NCBI GenBank assembly: GCA_043823085.1
Contig: JBDRBE010000004.1
Location: forward strand, 197,510 to 261,509
Reading direction: 5' to 3'
DNA from: Candidatus Levyibacteriota bacterium
GTDB lineage: Bacteria > Patescibacteriota > Microgenomatia > Levybacterales > UBA12049
Length of the DNA: 64,000 nt
The translations under genes and the position numbers were made by a program. The notes beneath the pieces were generated by a model. The model did no database searches and was not told where the DNA came from. It was given only the letters and a program-made list of their open reading frames with translations. Positions 1,295-27,031 of the stretch are shown piece after piece (the first letter of the stretch is position 1; every line of letters starts with the position of its first letter).

Positions 1295-1921
1295 ATGGCT
1301 GGTGTTTTATATAAAAAGGAAAGAGAGATTTTAGAGTTCATCGCGCAATTCCAAAATCAATATGGATATTCACCAAAACTTTCGGAAATTGCAGTGGCAA
1401 CGGGTCATAAAAGCAATTCAACAATTCATGCCATTATAAGTTCGCTGGTTGAAAAAGGATACATCCAAAAAGTTGAGGGAAATACAAGAGTTTTAAAAAT
1501 TCTCGATTCAACAATTACAACAACAGCTCTTGGCGCACAGCCTTCAATGGAATTACCCTTAATGGGATATATCGCAGCAGGGAAACCACTGGAACCATAT
1601 AGTGACCCAAATGCAACTTTTCAGGTTTCGGCATCAATGATGTCCGGTAAAAAAATAGCCTATGTATTGCAGGTTAAAGGAAATTCTATGGTTGAAGACG
1701 GTATTTTAGACGGTGATTATGTTGTTATCGAAAGAGCCGAAGATGCGGTTAACGGAGATATTGTTGTAGCACTTGTCGACGGAAACTTAGCAACATTGAA
1801 ACGTTTTTACAAAGAGGACGGGAGAGTTGTCCTAAAGCCTGCAAATGCCCAAATGGAACCGATTTATCCCAATTTCCTCACCATACAAGGAAAAGTAGTC
1901 GGACTCGTTCGAAAATTCTAG
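1295..1921 (+). CDS. lexA: LexA repressor (winged-helix N-terminus plus S24 peptidase C-terminus)
   Basis: LexA_DNA_bind-like N-terminus (YSPKLSEIA...STIHAIISSLVEKGYI), GNSM Ser motif and LATLKRF Lys motif. It lies divergent to uvrB. Confidence 0.85.
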   Translation: MAGVLYKKEREILEFIAQFQNQYGYSPKLSEIAVATGHKSNSTIHAIISSLVEKGYIQKVEGNTRVLKILDSTITTTALGAQPSMELPLMGYIAAGKPLEPYSDPNATFQVSASMMSGKKIAYVLQVKGNSMVEDGILDGDYVVIERAEDAVNGDIVVALVDGNLATLKRFYKEDGRVVLKPANAQMEPIYPNFLTIQGKVVGLVRKF

Positions 1922-14157: not shown

Positions 14158-15318
14158 CTAAATTTTCAGCATCCATTTAATAGTTGTCATAACGGATTTT
14201 GGGACTGTAATGGCAGGTTGAATAATTTCATTTGTAACTTTGGAAAAATCCACAATTTTTTCTTCATTTTGCTCCATTTTTTTTGCCAAAAATGATTCAT
14301 TGTCAACTGATAATTGCGGTTTTCCCGGTATTTTTGCAATTTCTTTTACGGCTTTTTGATTTTCATTTTCAGAGCCGTCAATATTGGTAAAAGAAAACAT
14401 GTCAAATGGTGACCCTGCTTTTAAAAGAAAAGGGGTAACAGCGACAATATTTTCATCGTTCCAAATCAAGTTGTAGGCAGTTCGAAGGTATTGAGGAATT
14501 ATGTCAGAAGAAACTGAATTGCTTGACCAGCCGGTTTCAGTGATAAATACGGGTAAATCTTTTCCGCCTAAAGTTTTGGCCAAATTTTTCTCATATCTAA
14601 AACTTGCAATGCTCATAGTTCCTAAAGTTGTCGGCGGTTTGGAAAAACCGGGGTTTGGATAAGAATGGCTGGCAAGCCCGTCAACTTTGGAAAACACATT
14701 ATTAAAAGCGCTCATTTGCCGCATAAAATCGTATTCGTTGATATATTTTCCATAAACATTTGCACAGCCGTTGTCAAGACCGGAAGATAAAATAAAAAAA
14801 TCCTGACTTCTTTCTTTAAAAATATCAACGGCATAACTTAAAATCCGGGCGTATTCTTTCGGGTTTGGACTTCCTTCCCATTCGTCACCGCGATTTACTT
14901 CGTTAAAAACGACAACGTAACGATTAATTGTCGGCCATGTCAAAGAATTTAAAAAATTAGCAAAGTCCAAAACATCGTATTCTGTTGGTTTTCGCCAGAC
15001 ACTTGTATTAAAATAATCTCCCTCGGAGGCAAGTCTGATAATTGGAATAACGTGTTTCTGCCTTGCAGAGTCCATAAAATTCTGCCATTTTAAAAGATCT
15101 TTATCACCTGCCTGAATTGGAATTGTCACATAGCCCCAATCACCGCCGTTTGAATTAACCAATCTTGCCGCGTCATTTATCTCATCTGGAAAGAGGATAT
15201 GAATGCCGAATTTATTGTTTGGAACCTTCAGCGGATCCTCAATAGCAAAGACTTGTTTTGGAAGAAGAAAATAAGAAAGAAGAAAGAAGAAAATAATAAT
15301 AACTTTCAATTTTGTCAT
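14158..15318 (-). CDS. Secreted glycoside hydrolase with a clan GH-A TIM-barrel (GH5-like)
   Basis: Signal peptide, FNEVNRGDEW (NE acid/base) and ITETGW (nucleophile) motifs. Confidence 0.55.
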   Translation of the reverse strand: MTKLKVIIIFFFLLSYFLLPKQVFAIEDPLKVPNNKFGIHILFPDEINDAARLVNSNGGDWGYVTIPIQAGDKDLLKWQNFMDSARQKHVIPIIRLASEGDYFNTSVWRKPTEYDVLDFANFLNSLTWPTINRYVVVFNEVNRGDEWEGSPNPKEYARILSYAVDIFKERSQDFFILSSGLDNGCANVYGKYINEYDFMRQMSAFNNVFSKVDGLASHSYPNPGFSKPPTTLGTMSIASFRYEKNLAKTLGGKDLPVFITETGWSSNSVSSDIIPQYLRTAYNLIWNDENIVAVTPFLLKAGSPFDMFSFTNIDGSENENQKAVKEIAKIPGKPQLSVDNESFLAKKMEQNEEKIVDFSKVTNEIIQPAITVPKSVMTTIKWMLKI

Positions 15319-15531
15319 GCTTTTATTATAGCATGGTTAAAATCGAAAGTCAGAAAACCGGCAGACAAAAATCCGAAAACTCAAAACAAAAAACCCATAA
15401 GCGAAATACTAACTAATCGCTAATTGCTAATCGCTAGTTAGCAATCTCTTTAAGGAGTTGCCTTTCCTCACACTTAGGACTAAAATAAAAGTCAGATGGC
15501 AAAGAAAATTAGAGAAATTAAGGGAGCTAAT

Positions 15532-15690
15532 ATGGATATTGATTTTACTCTTTCCTCATGGAAGCATGGTGAGTGTCCTTGGGGAAAAAATCACAAATGT
15601 GCTGTCAAAAATGTTTCAATTTGTGATCATTTTGAAGGCGTGAAGAAATTAGATACAGTCCTTTGCAGCTACCCAGACAAAAAATCATAA
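15532..15690 (+). CDS. Small Cys/His-rich hypothetical protein (~52 aa)
   Basis: AAGGGA Shine-Dalgarno sequence 7 nt upstream of the ATG; sequence ...HGECPWGKNHKCAVKNVSICDH. Confidence 0.35.
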   Translation: MDIDFTLSSWKHGECPWGKNHKCAVKNVSICDHFEGVKKLDTVLCSYPDKKS

Positions 15691-15760
15691 ATCATAAATC
15701 CTATCCCCTAGACCCCCAATCTCCCCTTTTGTGCCATAATGAGGCAAGAAAATTCCCTTC

Positions 15761-15790
15761 TTGACAATAGACCAAAGAGTCGGGTATTAT
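15761..15790 (+). promoter_or_regulatory. Promoter of the lexA-paralog operon: -35 TTGACA at 15761-15766, 18-nt spacer, -10 TATTAT at 15785-15790; the ATG is 7 nt downstream, so the mRNA is leaderless
   Basis: Read directly. GAAAATTC lies just upstream of the -35. Confidence 0.5.
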
Positions 15791-15796
15791 TGTTTT

Positions 15797-16435
15797 ATGC
15801 AAGCTAATCCCACACAACGACAAAAAGAGCTGCTTTCTATTATTTACCAATATATCCAAAATACCGGCTATCCTCCATCTTTTGAAGAAATGAAAAAACA
15901 ACTTGATGTTTCTTCAAATCAATCTGTCTTAGATCTTTTGATCAAACTGGAAGAACGGAGTTTGCTTAAAAGAAATGAATCTTCAGCTAGAAGTATCCTT
16001 ATACTGCCTCTTGGTTATGAAATTCTCGACAAACCTCCTCTTGCCCCATTCCTTGGCGCTACAAGCGCCGGTGTTCCGCTTGAAGCCATAGAAATCTCTG
16101 GAGACTGGCAGCCTCTTTCTTCAGACGTTGCCAAACTGCAAGACAATGTTTTTCTGCTCAAAATTTCTGGTGATTCCATGATTAATGCCGGTATTGATAA
16201 CGGCGATATGGTTTTAGTTAAAAGCGAAAAGGAATTTGTCTCGGGCGATATTGTATTGGCGCAAATTGGAGACGAAGCTACAATTAAACGATTTATGTCG
16301 GACGATAAACCGCCTTATGTTTATTTAAAACCAGAAAATCCAAAATATAGAATTATCCCTTTTACTGACGAAATGAGACTAACGGGAAAAGTTGTTTCTG
16401 TCTTCAGAGAAGGTTCTTGGAGGTCAGTTAATTAA
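15797..16435 (+). CDS. Second LexA-family repressor (LexA DNA-binding domain plus S24 peptidase)
   Basis: YPPSFEEMKKQLDVSS...LLIKLEERSLLKR N-terminus, GDSM Ser motif and ATIKRF Lys motif. The stop lies 3 nt before the next gene. Confidence 0.8.
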   Translation: MQANPTQRQKELLSIIYQYIQNTGYPPSFEEMKKQLDVSSNQSVLDLLIKLEERSLLKRNESSARSILILPLGYEILDKPPLAPFLGATSAGVPLEAIEISGDWQPLSSDVAKLQDNVFLLKISGDSMINAGIDNGDMVLVKSEKEFVSGDIVLAQIGDEATIKRFMSDDKPPYVYLKPENPKYRIIPFTDEMRLTGKVVSVFREGSWRSVN

Positions 16436-16438
16436 AAT

Positions 16439-18394
16439 ATGCCGACACAAAAGTTAAATAAAACAAAAGAAGTTATTGGAAAAATCTTTAAAGATTCTCA
16501 AATTCCTTATGGCTTGAAGGAATTTGGAGAGATTAGTCTAGAAGAAACTCTTACAATTACCGAAGAGGAGAAAGGGAGATTTTATATTAAAGACTTAAAA
16601 TCAGGTAATTTAAGATTTGTTTTTGATGAGGAAAAACAGTCGGGGAAACCGGAAGAGATTGTCAGGCAGCTTTGGTTGTATAAACTTCATACGCAATATC
16701 AATACCCTTTGGATAGAATTGACATAGAAAAAAGTATCCATTTTGGCCGTGAAATCCACGCTAAAGCCGCGGATATTGTTATTTATAAAAAGGATAAAAT
16801 TACTCCTTACATCATTGTTGAAGTTAAAAGTCCTACAGAAGAAAAAGGGATTGATCAGCTTAAGAGCTATTTAAGTGCTGAGGGAGCGGAAATTGGCCTT
16901 TGGTCAAATGGATTAAAGCGAGTTATTCTCTATCGCCCGTATCCTAGAGAATACAACGATACTCTTCCGGATTTGCCCCTTGCAAATACGACCATTGACG
17001 ATCTGCTAGAGGCTAAGAAGACTCTTTTTGAATACACCACCACTAAAATTAATTTAAAAGAAACAATTGAGACGATGGAAGAGTTAGTGCTTGCTAATGC
17101 TGGCGTGGATGTTTTTAATGAAGTTTTTAAGTTAATTTATGCCAAACTCTATGATGAAGGAGAAGCTAAATTTAGAAAAGATAATGAAGTTTATTTCAGA
17201 AAATATAAAGATCCGCAAAAAACTTATAATGTAATTAATGATCTTTTCAAAAAAGCAATCCACAAGTGGCCTGGTACTTTCTTTGAACAGGAAAACATCA
17301 GACTTTCTCCAGAACATCTTAATATTGTTGTTGGTGAACTAGAAAAAGCACGCCTTTTTGGCTCAGACCTTTCTATTATTGATGAAGCATTTGAATATTT
17401 AATCCCGGAAGTGGCCAAAGGTAAAAAAGGTCAGTACTTTACCCCTCGTCATGTTATTTCCATGGCGGTTAAAATGCTTAATCCCAAAAAAGACGAATAT
17501 GTGATTGACCCGGCGGCAGGTTCGGGTGGTTTTCTTATCAATGCCATGTATTTTGTTCGCGAGCAACACTTAAATGGTTCTGATGAGGCCATGAGAGAAT
17601 ACGCCAAAGATTATGTTTGGGGAATTGATTTTGCTGAAGAAATTTCCAAAGTTTCACGGGCCTTAATGTTGATTGCCGGCGATGGTCGTTCCCATATGTT
17701 TAGACTTAACTCTTTAGATCCGAGGGAGTGGCAAGGCGAGGATTCGGATCTTCTTGATGCTCGCTCCAAACTGAAAAACAGGCTTCTGGATTTAAGTAAT
17801 TCTTCTGATAGTTCGGAAAACCAACAAACTTTTCATTATTTCAACTTCGATGTTTTGTTAACGAATCCTCCGTTTGCCGGCGAAATTAAAGATAGCGGAA
17901 TTTTAAGGCAGTATTTTTTGGGAAGAAGAAAAGGGAAATTGGCTAACAAAATTGAACGACATATTTTGTTTATTGAAAGGGTTTTGGATATGATTCGTCC
18001 GGGTGGGCGTTTGGCAATAGTTTTACCTCAAGGAATTTTGAATAATACCAATATGGAATATATAAGAAACTGGCTTTTTGAAAAAGCCAGAATTTTAGCA
18101 GTGGTTGGACTTCATGGGAATACTTTTAAGCCTCATGCTGGAACTAAAACTTCGGTTTTGTTTTTACAAAAATGGGAAGAAAAAGAACAGCCTCTAAAAG
18201 ATTACCCAATTTTTATGGCAGTTTCCAAAAAAGGAGGGAAAGATAATTCCGGGGAATATATTTACAAAAAAGATGCAAATGGAAATTATGTTCATGATCA
18301 AAAGGGCAGAAAAGTTTTAGACCATGATTTAGACCAAATAGCAGATTCATTTATAAAATTTGCAAAGGAGCAAAATTTCAACTTTTGGAGATGA
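16439..18394 (+). CDS. Fusion of an HsdR_N-like PD-(D/E)xK nuclease domain and a gamma-class N6-adenine DNA methyltransferase (HsdM-like / BcgI-A-like restriction-modification subunit)
   Basis: N-terminus ADIVIYKKDKITPYIIVEVK carries the D...EVK nuclease motif. The methyltransferase has DPAAGSGGFL (motif I) and NPPF (motif IV). Confidence 0.8.
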   Translation: MPTQKLNKTKEVIGKIFKDSQIPYGLKEFGEISLEETLTITEEEKGRFYIKDLKSGNLRFVFDEEKQSGKPEEIVRQLWLYKLHTQYQYPLDRIDIEKSIHFGREIHAKAADIVIYKKDKITPYIIVEVKSPTEEKGIDQLKSYLSAEGAEIGLWSNGLKRVILYRPYPREYNDTLPDLPLANTTIDDLLEAKKTLFEYTTTKINLKETIETMEELVLANAGVDVFNEVFKLIYAKLYDEGEAKFRKDNEVYFRKYKDPQKTYNVINDLFKKAIHKWPGTFFEQENIRLSPEHLNIVVGELEKARLFGSDLSIIDEAFEYLIPEVAKGKKGQYFTPRHVISMAVKMLNPKKDEYVIDPAAGSGGFLINAMYFVREQHLNGSDEAMREYAKDYVWGIDFAEEISKVSRALMLIAGDGRSHMFRLNSLDPREWQGEDSDLLDARSKLKNRLLDLSNSSDSSENQQTFHYFNFDVLLTNPPFAGEIKDSGILRQYFLGRRKGKLANKIERHILFIERVLDMIRPGGRLAIVLPQGILNNTNMEYIRNWLFEKARILAVVGLHGNTFKPHAGTKTSVLFLQKWEEKEQPLKDYPIFMAVSKKGGKDNSGEYIYKKDANGNYVHDQKGRKVLDHDLDQIADSFIKFAKEQNFNFWR

Positions 18395-18395
18395 A

Positions 18396-18932
18396 ATGAA
18401 AAATAAAAGAAAAATAGTATACGCTTTTATAGACAGTCAGAATTTAAACTTGGGGACGAGTAAAGATATCTACAAGAGCAGAGGTAAGTATAAAAAATTA
18501 ATATACAAAGGTTGGAAACTGGATTTTCGCAAATTTAGGAAATATTTATTTGATAAATTTAGAGTTAGCAAAGCCTTTTTATTTATTGGCTATATTAAAC
18601 AAAATGAAAAGATGTATAAACGCTTAAAGTCTTACGGGTATGAATTAATTTTTAAGCCCACTGTAAAAGATGATTATGGAAAGCCAAAAGGAAATGTTGA
18701 TGCGGAACTTGTGCTTCATGCGGCGGCTATAGAATTTTCAAACTATGCTAAAGCCATAGTTGTTTCAAATGACGGTGATTTTCGTTGTTTGCATGAGTAT
18801 TTAGAAAAAAGGAGTAAGCTACTATACATAGTTATCCCTAATAAACATAGTGAGTCTAGTTTATTAAAAGAGTTTCAGAGATACAAAATATTTCTTTATC
18901 GTGAGAAGGAGAACTTAGAATTTAAGCAATAA
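18396..18932 (+). CDS. NYN-domain (LabA-like, PIN-like) putative ribonuclease
   Basis: IVYAFIDSQNL, GNVDAELVLHA and VVSNDGDF acidic motifs. GGAG Shine-Dalgarno sequence 10 nt upstream; begins 1 nt after the methyltransferase stop. Confidence 0.7.
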   Translation: MKNKRKIVYAFIDSQNLNLGTSKDIYKSRGKYKKLIYKGWKLDFRKFRKYLFDKFRVSKAFLFIGYIKQNEKMYKRLKSYGYELIFKPTVKDDYGKPKGNVDAELVLHAAAIEFSNYAKAIVVSNDGDFRCLHEYLEKRSKLLYIVIPNKHSESSLLKEFQRYKIFLYREKENLEFKQ

Positions 18933-18949
18933 AAATGGGAGGCGTCGCA

Positions 18950-18968
18950 AATAGACACGTAGTCTATT
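18950..18968. repeat. Perfect 7-bp inverted repeat AATAGAC-N5-GTCTATT
   Basis: Read directly, 18 nt after the NYN gene stop. Confidence 0.8.
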
Positions 18969-19048
18969 GGTCGTATTCTCCCTAATGATTAGTTAGATTA
19001 TATTAGCTTTTATGATGATAGTCAAGATAGCAAAAGATATCAAAAAAG

Positions 19049-19077
19049 GATGGTTCGGCAAACTCACCACAAGAGGA
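19049..19077 (+). repeat. 29-nt direct repeat, copy 1 (GATGGTTCGGCAAACTCACCACAAGAGGA), ending in the Shine-Dalgarno sequence of the orphan gene
   Basis: Matches copy 2 at 26 of 29 positions; all mismatches are A/G transitions. Confidence 0.85.
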
Positions 19078-19103
19078 TTTAGTTTTTGGAGGTAATATTA
19101 CAT

Positions 19104-19649
19104 ATGAGACCTAAGCTTGAAATAGATTTTGAACATTTTGCTGTAATGCTATTTGGAGATAGATACTATCAATATTGCAACTGGAACACGGAAAGTAATT
19201 ATAAAAAACTTTTGAAAGAAATAGCTCATCAATTAGAGATAGTAATTAACTCACAATTTACACCATCTGATGGTTTACAAAAACAAATGATAGAATTTTC
19301 ACTAGAAAAACTTCAGCGATCACCTAAAAAAAGCAATTACGAAGCATATTACATCAAAGAGTTAGTAACAATTATTTTTTGGATATTAGGTGACTTTCCC
19401 AACAACTGGCAAAGAAAAAACCTTAGAGGTAAAAAGATAGATAATTTCCATTATTCACGAAGTTTACACTATTCTCAAACTCTTAATCAAAAGATAAATA
19501 CTATTCTTGAAGCTCATAGGCTATCTCCTTTTTCCGAAAGGATATCTTGGCATGATCTAATAGTAAAAATAGGGCAATCTGGCGGTAGGGATAAATTTAT
19601 AGATTTTTATAAAAAAACTTACCCCGATTTATATTTGAAACTATTTTAA
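19104..19649 (+). CDS. Orphan hypothetical protein (182 aa) embedded in the restriction-modification-like operon
   Basis: GGAGG Shine-Dalgarno sequence 13 nt upstream of the ATG at 19104; no recognisable domain. Confidence 0.55.
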   Translation: MRPKLEIDFEHFAVMLFGDRYYQYCNWNTESNYKKLLKEIAHQLEIVINSQFTPSDGLQKQMIEFSLEKLQRSPKKSNYEAYYIKELVTIIFWILGDFPNNWQRKNLRGKKIDNFHYSRSLHYSQTLNQKINTILEAHRLSPFSERISWHDLIVKIGQSGGRDKFIDFYKKTYPDLYLKLF

Positions 19650-19686
19650 TATGATTACTTATTCAATAATCCAAAAATCTCAACTT

Positions 19687-19715
19687 GATGGTTCGACAAG
19701 CTCGCCACAAGAGGA
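19687..19715 (+). repeat. 29-nt direct repeat, copy 2 (GATGGTTCGACAAGCTCGCCACAAGAGGA), ending in the hsdS Shine-Dalgarno sequence
   Basis: See copy 1. Confidence 0.85.
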
Positions 19716-19727
19716 GCACTTTATTTT

Positions 19728-21098
19728 ATGATTTCATATTCAATCATTAACAAAAGTCAGTTAGAGGGAGCCTCGCGGCTGGATGCGGAATATTATCAGC
19801 CGGAATATTTAACCCTTGCTCAAAAACTAAGAGAGCTTAGTCTCCCCAGAATAAGCAAACTAGGTTTAGCTGTTGATGCGAGCGCTTTTTATCCATCAAT
19901 AGCAGAATACTATACTAGCGATGGGATCCCTTTTGTCAGGGTTGCAGATGTTGTAAATTTTCAATTGATTGAGGATGATTTATTGTTCTTGCCCAAAAAA
20001 ATTGCTGAGCAATATAAAACATTACGAAAAGGTAAGCCGGGAGATATTATTATCACAAAAGGTGGTACTGTAGGAAACGCAGCTCTCCTCCCTAAAAAAT
20101 ATCCAGAATACGCATTGAGCAGAGATATTATTTTTATTAGAACCTCAAAACTTCCAGAAGAGCTAGCAATAACAATTCTTCTATTTTTAAATTCAAAGTT
20201 TGGAATTTTTCAGTTGCTAAGAGGCGCAAGTCAGCAAATTCAACAACATTTAACTTTCCCATTTATTCGAGACTTAAATGTTCCCAAAATTGCCATTTAT
20301 GAAGCAGTAGAACTTTATCGAAAGGGGCTTGATGAATACGAAAATTCGAAATCTTTATACGCTAAAGCCGAGAATTTGCTTCTGGAGGAGTTGGGATTAA
20401 AAGATTTTCAAGTTGAAGATGATTTGAGTTTTGTTGTAAATCTTTCAGATGTAAAATCTGCAAACCGAGTTGATGCGGAACACTTTCAGCCGAAATATGA
20501 TAAATTATTGGAAAAAATTAAGCAAAATAAATGTCAAGTTTTAACAAGTATAATAGAAAACGTCAACGCAAAATTTGATCCTATTAAAACTCCAGATTCG
20601 GAATTTAAATATGTTGAATTAGCAAACATTAACTCATCTATAGGAGTTATTGATGGTTATACTGAAGTTTTAGGCAAAGAAGCCCCAAGCAGAGCAAAAA
20701 GATTATTAAAAAAAGACGATGTAATTGTTTCAAGCATTGAGGGATCTCTAGAAAAAGTTGCTCTAGCGGATGAGGAGCAAGATGGTTATATTGCTTCAAC
20801 CGGGTTTTTCCAATTTAGATCAAAAGAGTTATTACCGGAGGTAATTTTAATTTTTGCAAAAAGCATGGTTTTACAGTGGCAGTTTAAAAAACATTGTGCA
20901 GGTACGATATTAACAGCAGTTCCCGGCGAAGCTTTACAAAAAATGTTTATTCCAATAATTTCAAAACCCACCCAACAAAAAATTGCGGAATTGGTGAGGA
21001 AATCACATGAGGCAAGGAAAAAATCAAAAGAGCTTTTAGAAGAAGCGAAAAGAAAAGTTGAGACTTCGATAGAAACTCAGTCTAAAAGAAATGATTGA
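19728..21098 (+). CDS. hsdS: Type I restriction-modification specificity subunit with two target-recognition domains
   Basis: Duplicated RLDAEYYQP and RVDAEHFQP motifs, a central conserved coiled region, and C-terminal ELLEEAKRKVE. Confidence 0.85.
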   Translation: MISYSIINKSQLEGASRLDAEYYQPEYLTLAQKLRELSLPRISKLGLAVDASAFYPSIAEYYTSDGIPFVRVADVVNFQLIEDDLLFLPKKIAEQYKTLRKGKPGDIIITKGGTVGNAALLPKKYPEYALSRDIIFIRTSKLPEELAITILLFLNSKFGIFQLLRGASQQIQQHLTFPFIRDLNVPKIAIYEAVELYRKGLDEYENSKSLYAKAENLLLEELGLKDFQVEDDLSFVVNLSDVKSANRVDAEHFQPKYDKLLEKIKQNKCQVLTSIIENVNAKFDPIKTPDSEFKYVELANINSSIGVIDGYTEVLGKEAPSRAKRLLKKDDVIVSSIEGSLEKVALADEEQDGYIASTGFFQFRSKELLPEVILIFAKSMVLQWQFKKHCAGTILTAVPGEALQKMFIPIISKPTQQKIAELVRKSHEARKKSKELLEEAKRKVETSIETQSKRND

Positions 21099-21317
21099 AA
21101 AAAGATAATGAAGATAAATCTGCAACAAGAATTAAAATTTATTCATTCTGAAAAAATGAATACCGTTGACAAAAATAGTTTATCTTTTGAAATGTTAAAT
21201 ATCGCTCAAGTTTTAATATCAAATTACGCTAACGCAGAAACAAAAAAGTTAAAATCTTTTTACAGAACAATTTATTTTAAAACAAAAAATTTCTATTTAA
21301 ATCAATACAAATTGTAG

Positions 21318-21605
21318 TTATTCTAGCGGCAGATTATTCGACCATTGAATAAATTTCATACAATATTCAAAACTTCCAAAGTCACCCTCTTTTTGAGTTA
21401 TAAATACCTGACACCTATTCTTCTCGGCAGATACAGCATCTAAAAGTTCTTTATAACGATTGCTTTGCTCGCGGAGCGTTTGGACTTCCGAAAGAACCGC
21501 CTTTGCCTTTTGTTCGCTATTTACAATCCCTGAATACCAGTAATAAACACATCCTGCGATTACAACGACCACTAAAAATAGTAAAATAACTAATTTCTTC
21601 CGCAT
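21318..21605 (-). CDS. Small membrane-anchored hypothetical protein
   Basis: GGAG Shine-Dalgarno sequence before MRKKLVILLFLVVVVIAG; single N-terminal transmembrane helix. Confidence 0.4.
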   Translation of the reverse strand: MRKKLVILLFLVVVVIAGCVYYWYSGIVNSEQKAKAVLSEVQTLREQSNRYKELLDAVSAEKNRCQVFITQKEGDFGSFEYCMKFIQWSNNLPLE

Positions 21606-21678
21606 ATTCTTTATATCTCCAATTCTAATTATATCACAAATTACTTTCAAACATTACATTGTTCGCTTTTACATATAC

Positions 21679-21708
21679 TTGTCAAGCAGACGAGTAGATT
21701 GGTATAAT
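21679..21708 (+). promoter_or_regulatory. tRNA-Lys promoter: -35 TTGTCA, 18-nt spacer, -10 TATAAT, about 9 nt before the tRNA 5' end
   Basis: Read directly. The -35 sits inside the palindrome CTTGTCAAG, which reads TTGACA on the other strand. Confidence 0.6.
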
Positions 21709-21717
21709 GAAGAGTAC

Positions 21718-21789
21718 GGGCCGGTAGCTCAGCGGTAGAGCAGGAGCCTTTTAAGCTCTTGGTCACAGGTTCGAATCCTGTCCGGCTCA
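21718..21789 (+). tRNA. tRNA-Lys (anticodon TTT)
   Basis: Cloverleaf folded by hand: acceptor GGGCCGG/CCGGCTC, anticodon loop CTTTTAA, T-loop GGTTCGAATCC. No CCA encoded. Confidence 0.88.
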
Positions 21790-21870
21790 CTCTTCGACTC
21801 GCACAATGCAATTGTGCTCGCTCAGAGTAAACTCGAGTCAAAGAACCCTGAGCTTGTCGAAGGGCTAACA

Positions 21871-22125
21871 ATGTCTTGGTTCGTTTATATAGCTAGAGCA
21901 AAAACTAACAGATTTTATACGGGGATCACTACATGTCCTAACAAAAGGATCACAAAGCACAATTCAGGCAAGGGTTCAAGGTTTGCTATAGAACAAGGTC
22001 CATTTGAACTGATTTATAGCTCCAAAGCATTTCCAGATAAATCAGAAGCAAGAAAGAGGGAAATTCAAATTAAAGGTTGGTCAAGAGAAAAGAAATTAAA
22101 ACTAATAAGCGGGGCGTGGAAATAG
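21871..22125 (+). CDS. GIY-YIG nuclease superfamily protein (UPF0213-like)
   Basis: WFVYIARAKTNRFYTGITT...KHNSGKG...REIQIKGWSREKK; GAAGGG Shine-Dalgarno sequence upstream. Confidence 0.75.
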   Translation: MSWFVYIARAKTNRFYTGITTCPNKRITKHNSGKGSRFAIEQGPFELIYSSKAFPDKSEARKREIQIKGWSREKKLKLISGAWK

Positions 22126-22173
22126 AATTAGAGAGACCGAATTTTTCCAATACGGTTCATCACTACCCTTTTC

Positions 22174-22299
22174 CTAATCAGGTCCATAAAAGTATTGCAT
22201 TGCTCCACAACACATAAGATAAACTAATTCCTGTATTTGTTTTAATTCTTCCTCTGATGCATTAGGATAATATTTTCGTATTACATCCAATGGTAACAT
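22174..22299 (-). CDS. Hypothetical 41-aa protein (MLPLDVIRKYYPNASEEELKQIQELVYLMCCGAMQYFYGPD)
   Basis: Strong Shine-Dalgarno sequence AAGGTGGTGA 7 nt before the ATG. It is below the ORF-track size cutoff. Confidence 0.3.
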   Translation of the reverse strand: MLPLDVIRKYYPNASEEELKQIQELVYLMCCGAMQYFYGPD

Positions 22300-22428
22300 T
22301 TATAATCACCACCTTCATTCGTCAAAACTCATAGGTTTTATTTTAGAAGCGACTGAGTGTTTCAAGAAAGGAGAAAAACATCATTCAGTCTTTATTATCT
22401 GTTAAAATAGTGCTTGCTTATATAAATT

Positions 22429-23247
22429 ATGGGTGTTGAAACTTTGATAGCTAGAGAAGCTGCAAGCCTTATCACAAGAAGGCCAGATAAATTAAAACAT
22501 ACTGTTGGATTATATTTAATTTCTTTTTTAAACCCCGAAGTAAGTCGGGTTGGTAGAGCAACCTACTTCTTTATTCGTTACATGGATGATCTGCTTGATG
22601 GTAATAGAAGATTATCAAATGGATATCAAGTCCTCCCGCATATTGAAGCTATGAGGTCTCAAGTCGAAACAGGAAGATTTACAAAAGAGCCCAAAATTAT
22701 GGAGCTTGCAGAATATTCGTTAGGTGCTCTTCAAAGAAAAGCGTTGGCAAGTGATAACCCTCGACAAGATTTCCTTGATGTAATTGATATTATGGTTTTT
22801 GACTATCAGAGACTGCAAGCAAGACAAGAATTATCGGCGGAGCAATTAACAGATTATTATAAAAAAACTTTTTACCCCATACATAATATTATGTTAGTTG
22901 GGTTAGGATCAACTTTAAGAGCTACTGATATTCCCACATTTTCTCTTTGCCAGGGTCGAGTATATTCCGTTGAACATTTACAAGCAGATTGGAAAGTTGG
23001 AATTATTAATATACCAGAAGAAGTTTTGAGAACAGCTGGACTTAGTGCACAATCTCCTTATGAAACGGTAAGACAATCATCAGTAGTTAATGCTTGGGCT
23101 CGCAATGAACTTCGAGAAAGCAGAACAGAATTATTAATGCTACGAAAAATGTTTCAAGCTTCACCAGAAAGGATTACTCCAAGAATATATGGCGGCTTAA
23201 TAGGATCAATGATGGAAGTAGTAAATAGACCCTCCCCTTTTAATTAA
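22429..23247 (+). CDS. Hypothetical protein with a weak squalene/phytoene-synthase-like (isoprenoid synthase fold) signature
   Basis: YFFIRYMDDLLDG (Asp-rich motif 1-like) and GRVYSVEHL...INIPEEVLRTAGLS (motif 2 region-like). No database search was run. Confidence 0.3.
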   Translation: MGVETLIAREAASLITRRPDKLKHTVGLYLISFLNPEVSRVGRATYFFIRYMDDLLDGNRRLSNGYQVLPHIEAMRSQVETGRFTKEPKIMELAEYSLGALQRKALASDNPRQDFLDVIDIMVFDYQRLQARQELSAEQLTDYYKKTFYPIHNIMLVGLGSTLRATDIPTFSLCQGRVYSVEHLQADWKVGIINIPEEVLRTAGLSAQSPYETVRQSSVVNAWARNELRESRTELLMLRKMFQASPERITPRIYGGLIGSMMEVVNRPSPFN

Positions 23248-23289
23248 CAGGAACTTGCAGAATTATCCTAAAAATTCGATATACTTTCT

Positions 23290-23458
23290 TCACCGAATGA
23301 TCCTAGTGGTGAAAGTACCTTACTGTTAGGGAGCGAATGTTGGCGGAAAATTTTCCGATCCATCTTGGCCGCAAGGATCGATTTAGTAGTTGCATTTTGT
23401 CATTATTTTTGATAGCATAATGTTGTATTTCTGAAAAGAAATACTTTAATTTGCTAAC
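23290..23458 (+). ncRNA. Candidate small RNA or structured 3' element with its own putative promoter and terminator
   Basis: -35 TTGCAG at 23255-23260 and -10 TATACT at 23280-23285. Internal hairpins TTCACC...GGTGAA and CGATCC...GGATCG. Ends at the intrinsic terminator 23459-23491. No ORF or ribosome-binding site. Confidence 0.3.
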
Positions 23459-23491
23459 TCCCCCCGGTTCATTACGACCCGGGGGTTTTTC
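23459..23491 (+). terminator. Rho-independent terminator: CTCCCCCCGG-loop-CCCGGGGG followed by TTTTT
   Basis: GC-rich 8-9 bp stem, 10-nt loop and T5 run, read directly. Confidence 0.8.
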
Positions 23492-23523
23492 TTGCTTAAA
23501 ATCTTGGAATAACCTAAGATAAA

Positions 23524-24072
23524 GTGGTGAAGAAAAAAGTTTTAGTTCAGTTTGATGGCAGCAATTTCTACAAAAAAGTTAAACAGATTCTACCTCAAGT
23601 TCATTTAACTAATTTTGATTACAAAGGATTAGCAAAATCCATCACAAAAGCCACACCGGATCAAATAATTTACTATGTCGGCGAAATTAGAAAATATCCT
23701 GGCAATAAAAAGTCAGAAACTCTATATGCCAATCAACAGTAGCTATTCTTAAACTTAAGAAAGCAGGGTTTAGAAATAAAACTTGGATATCTTTTGATGT
23801 CCAATGGAAAATTTAGTGAAAAAGGCGTTGATGTTCAGATTGCTGTCGATATTGTACGCGGATCGATAAAGAATGAATTCAGTAAATTTTATCTGATTTC
23901 CTCTGATACAGATTTATTACCAGCTATTCAAACCGCAAAGGAAGAAGGGAAAGAGGTAATTTATGTTGGTTTCGAAAATTTCATCAGTCGAGCTCTACAA
24001 AAGAACTGTTCTTCTTACTTGATTTTAAAGAAAAAACAAATTCTAAAATTTGCTAAAATTAAAAGAAGTTGA
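23524..24072 (+). pseudogene. NYN-domain gene interrupted by a single in-frame TAG at 23740-23742
   Basis: Track ORFs 23524..23742 and 23794..24072 are in the same frame. Reading through gives one NYN domain: ...FDGSNFY...YANQQ*LFLNLRKQGLEIKLGYLL...KGVDVQIAVD...LISSDTDLLP. Confidence 0.65.
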
Positions 24073-24220
24073 TGTACCTACTTATGCATTTTTCAAGCCA
24101 AATAAATGGGCAAATTCGGAGTTTAGCCCTTCCTGAAGGAATAATTCACAGAATTCTCGCAGTCTGTTTAAGATATCATCCGTCTCACGCTTTGGTGAAC
24201 TCTACTTGACGCATCACTAA

Positions 24221-27031
24221 ATGGTCTGTTATGCTAAACGCAAGTTGAGCATCGCTAAAATATTTTCTTGGGCAATTTTAACTATTTGTGTTGTTGTTTT
24301 TGTCTTGTTGTTAAACATTGTTTCTCTGGTTACCGATTGGTGGTGGTATTCCGAAGTAGGATATTCCGAAATTTTCATAAAGTCCCTCAGCGCTAAAATC
24401 ATTGTGGGTTTTTCGGCTGGACTCATTGCAGCTGTTTTTCTTCTTACCAACATATTTTTTGCCCTGCGTTCTAAAATACCGTGGACAATAAAAATCCCGG
24501 AAGCTATGGTTGGCACCAGTCAGCCTTTAAGCTTGAGCAGTGGTTTATTTGGAAAACTTAGCATCATTATCAGTCTTATAATTTCTATCTTTATCGGTCT
24601 TATTGCGGCAAGTAATTGGAGCGATGTCTTGAGATTTCTCTCACAAGTCCCTTTTGATCAAAAAGATCCATTGTTTGGTCTGGATGTTTCTTTTTATGTA
24701 TTTTCGCTTCCCGTTTATTCTTTGGGGCTTAGTCTTATAAAAATTCTTCTTCTTGTATCTCTTATTGGTTGCTGTACTGCCTATATTTTGCGAGGCAGTC
24801 TTAAGCTTTCAAGTATTTTTGGTAAATTTGGTTCGCCGCAATTAACCGCAAAACCAAAGAAGCTTCATGATGCTTATTCACCAAGCGCAATACAAACCGA
24901 TAAGAAAGCCAGATTACACATCGGAATTTTATTATTTCTTTTTTTTACAGCAACTGCAGTTGGCACTCATTTTTCTATTTATGATTTGCTTATTAGTCAA
25001 AGCGGTGTTGTATTTGGTGCGGTTTTCACCGATGCAAATATTGTTATTCCTATTTTACGCGCATCTGTTTTTATTTACGGTTTCTCTGCAATTTTAGCAT
25101 TATTTTATGGAATATCCGGAAGAGTCGCGCCTCTTTTAGGTGCAGTTTTATTAACTATAATAGTCGGATTTGCATCTTCGATTTTTCCATCAATTTTTCA
25201 AAAACTGGTCGTAGCGCCAAATGAGCTTGTTAAGGAAGCTCCGTTTATCAAAAACAATATTTATGCCAGTCGCAAAGCTTATGGTTTGGACAATGTGGAA
25301 GAACGGGAAATAGCCGCAGACAAACCAATTACAGCATCCGATATCGCAGCTAACAATTTAACAATCAAAAATGTTCGGCTTTGGGACAGAGATCCGCTTC
25401 TCTCCACTTTTTCACAAATCCAGGAGATTAGAACTTATTACGAGTTCGCGTCAGTTGATAATGACCGTTACATGATTAACGATGAAATACGTCAAATCAT
25501 GCTTTCACCAAGAGAGTTGGCTTCGGATAGTCTGCCGAACAAAAATTGGATTAACGAAACGCTTACTTTTACTCACGGATATGGCGCGGCTGCCGGACCC
25601 GTAAACCAAGTTACACCGGAAGGGTTACCGGTGCTATTCGTTAAAGACTTACCTCCAAAATCTGAAGTTGAAGAACTTAAAATCACCAGACCGGAGGTTT
25701 ACTATGGAGAAATTTTAAATGATTACGTTATAGTCAAAACTAAATCTAAAGAATTCGACTATCCAAAAGGGGAAGATAATGTATACACCTCTTATGCAGG
25801 GAAGGGTGGAGTTGAGATTAATTCGTCTTTGCGTCGGATTTTCTATGCCTTACGTTTTGGTTCGTTAAAATTATTTTTATCAAGTGACGTTACCAGAGAA
25901 AGCCGTATTATTTATAATCGCAATATAAAAGAAAGAGTCAGCAAAATCGCACCTTTTCTTACTTACGACCGAGATCCATATCTTGTAATTAGCGATGGTA
26001 AACTGCGTTGGATTCTCGATGCTTACACGTCCACTGACCGTTATCCCTATTCCCAGCCGCTATCTATAGATGGAAATAAAGTAAACTACATCAGAAATTC
26101 AGTTAAGGTAGTGATTGATGCCTACGATGGGTCAGTCAAATTTTATCAAAGTGATCCTGATGATCCAATTATTAAAGCTTATTCCAAGATTTTCCCCAAA
26201 ACTTTTCAAAAGCTTTCAGATATGCCCAAAAGCCTGATCGTGCATCTTCGTTATCCCGAGGATATTTTTACTTTGCAAACTACTATTTATACTATATATC
26301 ACATGGATGATCCGCAGATTTTCTATAATAAAGAAGATCAGTGGGAAATCCCTGCTATTACTCAAGGGGATGAGCTGCAGGCGATGGATCCTCGGCACAT
26401 GATTATGAAGCTTCCCGGTGAAAAACAAGAGGAATTTATTCTAATGTTGCCATTTACGCCTAGGGCCAAAGATAATCTATCCGCATGGATGGTTGCCAGA
26501 AATGACGAAGAGCAGTATGGTAAACTTATGGTTTACCGCTTTCCCAAAGATAAATTGGTGTTTGGTCCCAAGCAGATAATCGGCCGAATTAGCCAAGATG
26601 CGCAGATCAGTCAGCAAATTTCCCTGTGGGATCAGACCGGTTCTCAAGTAATTCAGGGGCCCCTTTTGGTCATTCCGATTGAGGAATCTTTGGTTTACGT
26701 GCGGCCGCTTTATCTTAAGGCAACAACTGGTAAGATCCCGGAACTCAAACGGGTAATTGTTGCATATGAAAACAAGATTGCCATGGAGGAGACTTTGGAG
26801 GAAGGTCTGGCTAAAATCTTTGGTAATGTTGAGGGTCAAACCAAGCCATCCGAAGAAATATTTCTTCAAGCAACAGAACCAATATCCATTGATATAACTA
26901 AAGAAGACCTGCTTGAGCAAGCAAGTCAAGCGTATAAGTCCGCTATCAATGCGCAACGCGAGGGAGATTGGGGAAGGTATGGAGAGGAAATAAATACTTT
27001 GGGAGAAATACTAAACAGACTTAAACAGTAA
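24221..27031 (+). CDS. UPF0182-family large membrane protein
   Basis: About 930 aa with multiple N-terminal transmembrane helices and a large extracytoplasmic C-terminal domain; the overall architecture matches UPF0182. Confidence 0.65.
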   Translation: MVCYAKRKLSIAKIFSWAILTICVVVFVLLLNIVSLVTDWWWYSEVGYSEIFIKSLSAKIIVGFSAGLIAAVFLLTNIFFALRSKIPWTIKIPEAMVGTSQPLSLSSGLFGKLSIIISLIISIFIGLIAASNWSDVLRFLSQVPFDQKDPLFGLDVSFYVFSLPVYSLGLSLIKILLLVSLIGCCTAYILRGSLKLSSIFGKFGSPQLTAKPKKLHDAYSPSAIQTDKKARLHIGILLFLFFTATAVGTHFSIYDLLISQSGVVFGAVFTDANIVIPILRASVFIYGFSAILALFYGISGRVAPLLGAVLLTIIVGFASSIFPSIFQKLVVAPNELVKEAPFIKNNIYASRKAYGLDNVEEREIAADKPITASDIAANNLTIKNVRLWDRDPLLSTFSQIQEIRTYYEFASVDNDRYMINDEIRQIMLSPRELASDSLPNKNWINETLTFTHGYGAAAGPVNQVTPEGLPVLFVKDLPPKSEVEELKITRPEVYYGEILNDYVIVKTKSKEFDYPKGEDNVYTSYAGKGGVEINSSLRRIFYALRFGSLKLFLSSDVTRESRIIYNRNIKERVSKIAPFLTYDRDPYLVISDGKLRWILDAYTSTDRYPYSQPLSIDGNKVNYIRNSVKVVIDAYDGSVKFYQSDPDDPIIKAYSKIFPKTFQKLSDMPKSLIVHLRYPEDIFTLQTTIYTIYHMDDPQIFYNKEDQWEIPAITQGDELQAMDPRHMIMKLPGEKQEEFILMLPFTPRAKDNLSAWMVARNDEEQYGKLMVYRFPKDKLVFGPKQIIGRISQDAQISQQISLWDQTGSQVIQGPLLVIPIEESLVYVRPLYLKATTGKIPELKRVIVAYENKIAMEETLEEGLAKIFGNVEGQTKPSEEIFLQATEPISIDITKEDLLEQASQAYKSAINAQREGDWGRYGEEINTLGEILNRLKQ

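Follow-up and report, generated by a model that had tools for sequence, protein, structure and literature searches.

Gene Content of the Operon

The stretch of DNA analyzed here (hereafter the window; 64,000 nucleotides of contig JBDRBE010000004.1) comes from a metagenome-assembled genome of Candidatus Levyibacteriota, a member of the Patescibacteria or candidate phyla radiation (CPR), and carries five closely spaced genes on its forward strand, in which a second LexA homolog, named LexA2, precedes the genes of a restriction-modification (R-M) system. LexA2 is followed by a nuclease-methyltransferase fusion (RM), two further genes that we call cargo, namely a gene of the NYN family and a gene termed the orphan, and an HsdS-type specificity subunit (S) with two target recognition domains (TRDs) (Table 1). 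The original prediction, made from the sequence alone, had proposed these five genes and their domains, and they are confirmed by the list of open reading frames (ORFs) and by domain calls on the window proteins with Pfam, NCBIfam and PADLOC. RM starts 3 nt past the stop codon of LexA2, and the NYN gene 1 nt past that of RM. Downstream of S there is only an ORF of 69 amino acids (aa), followed by a convergent gene. No strong internal promoter was found on the + strand across the operon, and no + strand terminator-like site in its intergenic gaps, the sole + strand match lying inside the RM gene; the closely spaced genes probably share one transcript from the single leaderless promoter in front of LexA2.

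Eleven other large ORFs (437–978 aa) were checked and are housekeeping genes, including those for a PEP-utilizing enzyme, UvrA, UvrC and BipA, as well as a 936-aa ORF of the UPF0182 family. As the original prediction had claimed, this survey finds no HsdR in the 64-kb window. No phage genes flanking the module were seen among the large window ORFs tested, and no integrase or repeat marks the ends of the module.

Table 1. Positions of the operon, its control region and associated features in the window (rows with locus names refer to related loci).
Feature	Position	Strand	Description
Sigma-70-type promoter	15761..15790	+	TTGACA (15761-15766), 18-nt spacer, TATTAT (15785-15790)
Putative LexA2 operator	15767..15784	+	ATAGACCAAAGAGTCGGG; 18-bp palindrome in the promoter spacer, abuts the -10
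LexA2 (LexA paralog)	15797..16435	+	212 aa from ATG; Pfam LexA_DNA_bind + Peptidase_S24
RM subunit (nuclease-methyltransferase)	16439..18394	+	651 aa; Pfam HSDR_N_2 + N6_Mtase
NYN gene, cargo gene 1	18396..18932	+	178 aa; PF01936
Orphan, cargo gene 2	19104..19649	+	181 aa; all-alpha model
HsdS-type S subunit, two TRDs	19728..21098	+	456 aa; Methylase_S
29-nt direct repeat, copy 1	19049..19077	+	GATGGTTCGGCAAACTCACCACAAGAGGA; upstream of the orphan gene
29-nt direct repeat, copy 2	19687..19715	+	90% identical to copy 1; overlaps the hsdS remnant
Apparent recombination scar	19650..19715	+	hsdS 5'-end remnant 19650-19691, 71% identical to 19727-19768
LexA1 (canonical-type LexA)	1295-1921	+	TIGR00498 173 bits; 29% identical to LexA2
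Insert of ~120 aa between LexA2 and RM	L014:7610-8023, L028:3168-3524, L050:5936-6379, L053:7597-7998, L078:7616-7999, L080:7628-7999, L096:6599-7000		Two predicted membrane helices

Conservation of the LexA2-RM-S Arrangement

To collect relatives of the module, one genome of each species was scanned with an alignment as the query, which returned 408 relatives of RM, and the best 80 loci were examined, with ORFs called mechanically; a single-protein query of the same genome contigs had given no match, and the alignment query was used instead. Upstream DNA is available for 78 loci, and in 74 of them RM is directly preceded on the same strand by a gene of the LexA2 type, with a median distance of 5 nt between the LexA2 stop and the RM start; an HsdS gene lies downstream of RM in each of the 69 loci whose DNA extends far enough. 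The LexA-paralog-led operon of R-M and defense-type genes that was originally proposed is hence a recurrent one, and of the predicted gene order it is LexA2, RM and S that are conserved, the NYN and orphan genes being swappable. The best 120 database matches of RM are full length and 75–82% identical, and come from many classes of Patescibacteria, including Nealsonbacteria, Falkowbacteria, Giovannonibacteria, Azambacteria and Peregrinibacteria. In the flanks (±8 kb), no gene family is shared by more than 8 of the 80 loci, and none of these families is a translocase; the module is self-contained, and its chromosomal contexts are unrelated.

The reverse scan, in which a LexA2 alignment was run against metagenome contigs, yielded 28 loci of the LexA2 clade, 23 of them with usable downstream DNA. 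All 23 informative loci lead into an R-M module, and 20 of them into this RM family. In L090, LexA2 is followed by a different nuclease-methyltransferase fusion with a short S gene, and in L095 and L098 by a methyltransferase with the motif DPFSGSGTT, which in L098, the one whose contig extends further, is succeeded by a 269-aa gene. Four more distant LexA2 relatives are single-protein methyltransferase fusions. Since LexA2 loci lead into R-M genes, LexA2-type proteins appear to be R-M-dedicated regulators and no stray copies of an SOS repressor. In the fusions, a LexA2-like winged helix and S24 domain are joined to a DPPY (beta-class) methyltransferase (L117:4624-6282, L118:5983-7470, L120:431-1882, L123:3-1235), and each has the same operator on its 5' side and a putative restriction endonuclease gene on its 3' side; self-cleavage of such a protein would part the DNA-binding domain from the enzyme. 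A further observation concerns a conserved protein of ~120 aa with two predicted membrane helices (KSHxPxIHDNTEEDLILVPPSVL...), which is encoded between LexA2 and RM in seven loci (Table 1).

The Predicted LexA2 Regulator and Its Putative Operator

LexA2 has the sequence characters of the LexA family, that is, both domains, the cleavage site and the Ser/Lys dyad. It matches TIGR00498 over its full length with 154.7 bits (cutoff 110.95), and its best matches in the Protein Data Bank (PDB) are LexA repressors; phage repressor families, e.g., phrog_4, are also matched. The window encodes the canonical-type LexA1 as well (Table 1), and LexA2 is indeed, as had been noticed, a second complete LexA homolog. 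The two genes are 14 kb apart in the window, and in L050 a LexA1-type gene (1-619, - strand) is found ~5 kb from LexA2. The LexA genes upstream of RM match LexA2 in phmmer searches at 1e-72 to 1e-102 (1e-50 in the outlier L088) and match LexA1 weakly, and, as judged by sequence comparison, the RM-linked genes are a distinct clade, LexA2. The Ala-Gly cleavage site (SAG), the Ser (GDSM) and the Lys (IKRF) are kept in at least 90–98% of 77 members of this clade, which are otherwise 45–74% identical to the window protein.

The promoter in front of LexA2 matches at 11/12, which is joint-best in 15300-21800 and the best + strand site upstream of the operon genes. The ATG lies 6 nt past the -10 hexamer; transcription is thus expected to begin at the start codon itself and to give an mRNA without a leader, in agreement with the strong leaderless promoter suggested originally. 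The LexA2 ORF as listed by the program extends upstream to a TTG at 15761, which is part of the -35 hexamer. The spacer between the hexamers is occupied by a palindrome that is the putative operator of LexA2 (Table 1). A position frequency matrix, built from 72 promoters aligned on the conserved core, gives the operator consensus CCnGA-N8-TCnGG with a GAC-N6-GTC core, and the consensus of promoter and operator together is TTGAC..CCnGA-N8-TCnGG, the commonest form being CCAGAATAAATAGTCGGGTAtnAT. In 61 of the 72 related loci the promoter geometry is the same, with a distance of 18–20 nt between the G of GTCGGG and the ATG. A search of both strands of the 80 loci, 1.1 Mb in all, gives 54 matches to GA-N7-GTCGGGTA, each of them at a LexA2 promoter, and the window has one exact match to this pattern (15770-15786). 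A single near-match of the operator in the window falls within the coding region of uvrA and is no better than expected by chance, and scanning of the window and the 80 loci revealed no SOS-regulon operators beyond the promoter of LexA2 itself. The operator precedes every LexA2 type examined, whatever the R-M type that follows, including the fusions, a pattern expected of LexA2's own predicted binding site. In addition, the recognition-helix segment SSNQS is invariant in the clade, save for two loci with SNQA, and both of these carry the symmetric operator variant TGACC-N4-GGTCA, so that the two cases hint at a co-variation of recognition helix and operator.

A DnaA-box consensus, TTATCCACA, was also observed in either orientation upstream of the -35 of LexA2 in 41 of 75 genome loci. 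It is located 46–77 nt upstream of the ATG, most often at -53 to -55, against a background of ~0.05 per kb per strand, and the loci concerned include L010, L091, L102, L105, L107, L115, L117, L118 and L120; it was not found in the window at 15700-15760. Through this box, DnaA or the state of replication may provide a second regulatory input; alternatively, some other factor may bind there.

RM and S as a Probable Type IIB-Like Enzyme

RM combines an N-terminal PD-(D/E)xK nuclease (HSDR_N_2, residues 71-180) with a gamma-class N6-adenine methyltransferase (N6_Mtase, residues 313-647; motifs DPAAGSGGF and NPPF). Its best solved relative in the PDB is RM.BsaXI, an enzyme of type IIB (E-value 7.8e-31 with the single sequence and 1.7e-39 with a profile), which the structures of type I HsdM proteins trail by ~18–20 orders of magnitude in E-value. 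According to passages of the paper on this enzyme, BsaXI assembles as (RM)2S and carries its PD-(D/E)xK nuclease at the N-terminus, and Ala substitution of E73, D90, E105 or K107 abolishes its cleavage (PMC11997821). The profile alignment spans the nuclease (66-134) and the methyltransferase (223-587) and pairs these four residues with E97, D112, E128 and K130 of RM, all of which are invariant in 32 RM homologs. The S protein has an internal repeat (DAEYYQPEY/DAEHFQPKY), the mark of two TRDs. S proteins share a mean pairwise identity of 38%, which is uncorrelated with the identity of the RM proteins (r = 0.08), and this high and decoupled divergence fits frequent recombination in that part of the operon.

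The locus thus presents what characterizes type IIB systems, i.e., a nuclease-methyltransferase fusion, a separate S subunit with two TRDs, and no translocase within the window or the related loci. RM and S probably constitute a complete type IIB-like R-M system, which would cut DNA on both sides of its site. The missing HsdR, which the original prediction had taken as the sign of an odd hybrid, is explained by the match of RM and S to the type IIB (BsaXI/BcgI) architecture.

A Variable Cargo Slot between RM and S

The distance between RM and S varies from none (overlapping genes) to ~2.7 kb. In 7 of 70 loci with both genes the gap is shorter than 80 nt and holds no cargo, and the remaining loci contain up to four cargo genes, nearly all co-directional. 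The 97 ORFs of the slot fall into ~59 BLAST clusters. Their Pfam matches comprise DUF3800, Trypsin_2, DUF4145, PBECR3, RnlA toxin, NYN, AbiEii-type AAA_21, Schlafen AlbA_2, MazF, HEPN and OLD TOPRIM, and their PADLOC matches LmuA, AriA, AbiLi, Old, PtuA/GajA-like ATPases, NsnB, PD-T7-4, mad3 and several PDC candidates. With such predicted contents, the slot is to all appearance a recombination hotspot at which defense genes are exchanged, and its cargo could have an anti-phage role.

The NYN protein of the window (PF01936, E-value 5.7e-13) is LabA-like and a predicted RNase of the PIN fold, and has no PADLOC match. NYN models match 2 of the 82 cargo proteins scanned (PF01936; PADLOC PDLC01154), and among the relatives a NYN gene is rare in the slot (L010, L040, L116) and is not accompanied there by the orphan. 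The three closest homologs of the orphan (51–59% identical) are found in the order LexA, HSDR_N/methyltransferase, orphan, HsdS, without NYN. As the NYN and orphan genes occur without each other in a variable slot, they are best regarded as two independent passengers, and the notion that they form an effector and sensor pair is not upheld.

The orphan gene had been predicted as a 182-aa gene; the gene is present and encodes 181 aa, but it is no orphan, since a profile search finds a family of 193 cluster representatives of ~190 aa. It has no match in the family libraries searched. An AlphaFold2 model from an alignment of 103 sequences is a confident all-alpha structure (predicted local distance difference test, pLDDT, 92.6; predicted template modeling score, pTM, 0.81), and this all-alpha family has no known fold relative. 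The profile of the family matched no other cargo gene of the 80 loci. Of four distant members looked up, one (L192) is flanked by the hsdM and hsdS genes of a canonical type I locus, another (L194) lies ~2 kb from a type I locus and beside a Schlafen-like gene, and two are on short, uninformative contigs. By this predicted association, the orphan belongs to an R-M-associated accessory family.

In the window, a pair of 29-nt direct repeats brackets the orphan gene, where none is expected by chance. Together with the duplicated 5' end of hsdS (Table 1), the repeat looks like the scar of a cassette insertion at the start of hsdS. A role of the repeat as a family-wide recombination site was ruled out, as it was not found in the other 87 loci.

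Proposed Regulation and Alternative Explanations

We consider it fairly probable that the genes described above form one operon, consisting of a type IIB-like RM enzyme with its S subunit and a cargo slot, which is headed and controlled by a dedicated LexA paralog, LexA2, and de-repressed by its self-cleavage. A LexA2 dimer would bind the 18-bp palindrome in the spacer of its own leaderless promoter, and would keep the levels of LexA2, RM, cargo and S low in the manner of a C-protein or RptR-type controller. Because the Ala-Gly site and the Ser/Lys dyad are intact, a signal of the RecA-filament type should trigger self-cleavage of LexA2, upon which the whole operon would be de-repressed; possible sources of the signal are DNA ends from restriction, phage replication and DNA damage. 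De-repression would bring about more restriction and methylation, as well as more of the toxin-like cargo, here the NYN RNase and the all-alpha protein. Incoming DNA, once restricted, would offer ends for the loading of RecA, and this could result in a feed-forward rise of restriction, methylation and cargo. For gating of the operon by a damage-type or RecA-filament signal, which is suggested by the conserved autocleavage residues, by knowledge of the family and by analogy with LexA, lambda cI and the lexA duplicates in control of local cassettes, we see roughly even odds.

Several points weigh against this scheme. The S24 fold also serves dimerization, and the kept catalytic residues do not establish RecA as the trigger; a recA gene is absent from the 64-kb window. 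A host with damaged DNA would seem to be endangered by more restriction nuclease, and restriction alleviation, the opposite response, is known for type I systems. The left half of the operator in the window is degenerate (ATAGAC vs. CCnGAC). The 80 loci are the closest of the 408 relatives, and the synteny count is therefore biased to one clade. Distant relatives of RM (40–48% identity, on viral contigs) form RM-S pairs without LexA2, and four genome loci without LexA2 carry instead a RadC/JAB-like gene that ends 3 nt upstream of RM (L076:7634-7966; L083, L084, L087), from which it follows that LexA2 is not obligatory for the enzyme.

The alternative that survives best, which we nevertheless hold to be unlikely, is a modification-only (epigenetic) system, with an unused nuclease and with LexA2 as a plain autorepressor whose S24 domain serves dimerization and provides no damage gate. 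The C-terminal domains of the LexA family and of lambda cI mediate dimerization; cleavage by RM is predicted from sequence; and an operator restricted to the promoter of LexA2 itself fits simple homeostatic autoregulation. However, both the nuclease tetrad, invariant in 32 homologs, and the autocleavage site, Ser and Lys, kept across 77 otherwise divergent LexA2 proteins, would be unexpected if the activities were unused, and the neighboring cargo belongs mostly to defense and toxin families.

Slightly less likely again is an ordinary type I R-M system, with hsdR elsewhere in the genome, the NYN and orphan genes as passengers, and an HSDR_N domain that is vestigial or contact-only. Database labels agree with this explanation: the best PADLOC model of RM is PDLC03034 (6.8e-178), filed as 'Type I methyltransferase', S matches Specificity_I, the 'Type I specificity subunit' (1.4e-49), homologs are named 'type I restriction enzyme M protein', and the other PDB relatives of RM are HsdM proteins. 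On the other hand, the hallmark of type I, an HsdR with a nuclease and a superfamily 2 (SF2) translocase beside HsdM and HsdS, is seen neither in the window nor in the flanks, where no large gene recurs within ±8 kb of the 80 loci. The four BsaXI cleavage residues are matched and invariant in RM, and the closest solved relative is, by the difference in E-value given above, the type IIB enzyme.

That LexA2 is a cI-like repressor of a prophage or mobile element, or a housekeeping SOS LexA, placed beside the R-M genes by chance is very improbable and was rejected, for although LexA2 scores above the LexA equivalog cutoff and matches phrog_4, this idea is contradicted by the synteny data (adjacency in 74/78 loci at a few nucleotides' distance, in many classes of Patescibacteria, with housekeeping flanks that are unrelated between loci), by the separate LexA1, by the absence of flanking phage genes and by an operator found nowhere else in the window.

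The LexA2-controlled operon may represent a wider phenomenon. More tentatively, and with somewhat less than an even chance in our estimation, LexA2 proteins could be Patescibacteria-wide self-cleaving controllers dedicated to R-M, occurring in at least four architectures including the LexA-methyltransferase fusions; restriction and abortive-infection cargo would then amount to an inducible immunity, set off when basal restriction or phage replication gives rise to RecA filaments and LexA2 cleaves itself, with amplification of the entire module, and for this immunity DnaA is a possible second input via TTATCCACA.

Comparison with Known Systems

With BsaXI and BcgI (type IIB, (RM)2S), the module shares the fusion of a PD-(D/E)xK nuclease to a gamma-class methyltransferase, a separate S subunit with two TRDs, and the absence of a translocase. 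It differs in that BsaXI has 916 aa, compared to the 651 aa of RM, and a C-terminal 'paddle' region without a counterpart in RM; the match is weak outside the methyltransferase core, the nuclease stretch scoring 22 bits. The available passages of the BsaXI paper mention no LexA-type regulator or cargo slot (PMC11997821).

The C proteins (C.PvuII, C.AhdI) and RptR are likewise encoded by the first gene, bind repeats or palindromes in their own promoter and repress an R-M operon. C proteins are small DNA-binding proteins without a protease domain. RptR is also a small DNA-binding protein lacking a protease domain, whereas LexA2 joins a winged helix to an S24 autopeptidase and so has a built-in off-switch. 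RptR heads a type I R-M operon of enteropathogenic Escherichia coli (EPEC) with an embedded DarTG2 toxin-antitoxin defense (PMC12255303). The operators are different, being CCnGA-N8-TCnGG for LexA2 and TAGCTA for RptR, and LexA2 is no small Xre-type helix-turn-helix protein acting on C-boxes, its position and autoregulatory layout being analogous to those of the C proteins.

In lexA2-imuA-imuB-dnaE2 of Pseudomonas and Xanthomonas, and with LexA2 of Leptospira, a second LexA heads a local cassette. These lexA duplicates resemble the present case as first genes with a motif of their own and an autoregulated local regulon, but their cargo consists of translesion polymerases, in contrast to the R-M and defense genes found here, with a LexA2 clade spread together with the module across classes of Patescibacteria. 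Duplication of lexA with divergence of the motif is a recognized pattern (PMC8565304).

PrrC and RloC are latent RNase or toxin genes placed between R-M genes, the PrrC gene sitting inside the EcoPrrI type I locus (PMC12707154), and the NYN and other cargo genes have an equivalent internal position. Unlike these, the NYN protein has no ABC-ATPase or anticodon-nuclease domain, and the slot is hypervariable instead of holding one partner. MADS (mad1-mad8) has a similar order of regulator (mad1), methyltransferase (mad2), extra genes and S (mad5), and two cargo proteins of relatives match mad3; the scores of RM and S against the MAD2 and MAD5 models, however, fall far short of the NCBIfam cutoffs (312 vs. 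720 and 126 vs. 400, respectively), and MAD6-8, mandatory in the detection model of its authors, were not found downstream of S. CapH/CapP, which pairs a helix-turn-helix repressor with a separate metalloprotease, differs from LexA2, a single-chain S24 serine autopeptidase, and there is no metalloprotease gene among the operon genes.

In the usual view, R-M systems are either expressed constitutively or adjusted by small C proteins or repressors of the RptR type. Within the literature searched, no description of LexA-type R-M controllers, in Patescibacteria or otherwise, was found; the study of Sanchez-Osuna et al. (2017) on the SOS network of Patescibacteria may mention the paralog. LexA is likewise not mentioned in a large recent review of R-M biology (PMC12707154). 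Within these limits, the LexA2 operon is a real, not previously described variety of the repressor-controlled R-M systems. If the scheme is correct, the proteolytic off-switch makes restriction a signal-induced process and ties it to the machinery of SOS sensing. To our knowledge, Patescibacteria are largely without CRISPR, and a module as common as this one, with RM relatives in 408 species-representative genomes, could account for much of their defense against phages. The slot between RM and S is, in addition, a source of candidate defense genes, including the 181-aa all-alpha family, and with its few genes, conserved operator and leaderless promoter the module allows the hypothesis to be tested directly in E. 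coli.

Other Features near the Operon

An Rfam scan of 15000-24500 gave no match except one tRNA. This tRNA-Lys(UUU), at 21718-21790, with a strong promoter-like site at 21679-21708, lies 0.6 kb downstream of hsdS and is followed by a GIY-YIG nuclease gene (21814-22125). A second NYN-family gene (TIGR00288-like) is located 3 kb downstream of the operon on the + strand, where it is split into ORFs of 72 aa and 92 aa (23524-23742 and 23794-24072); the split probably reflects a frameshift in a pseudogene or a mistake in the assembly.

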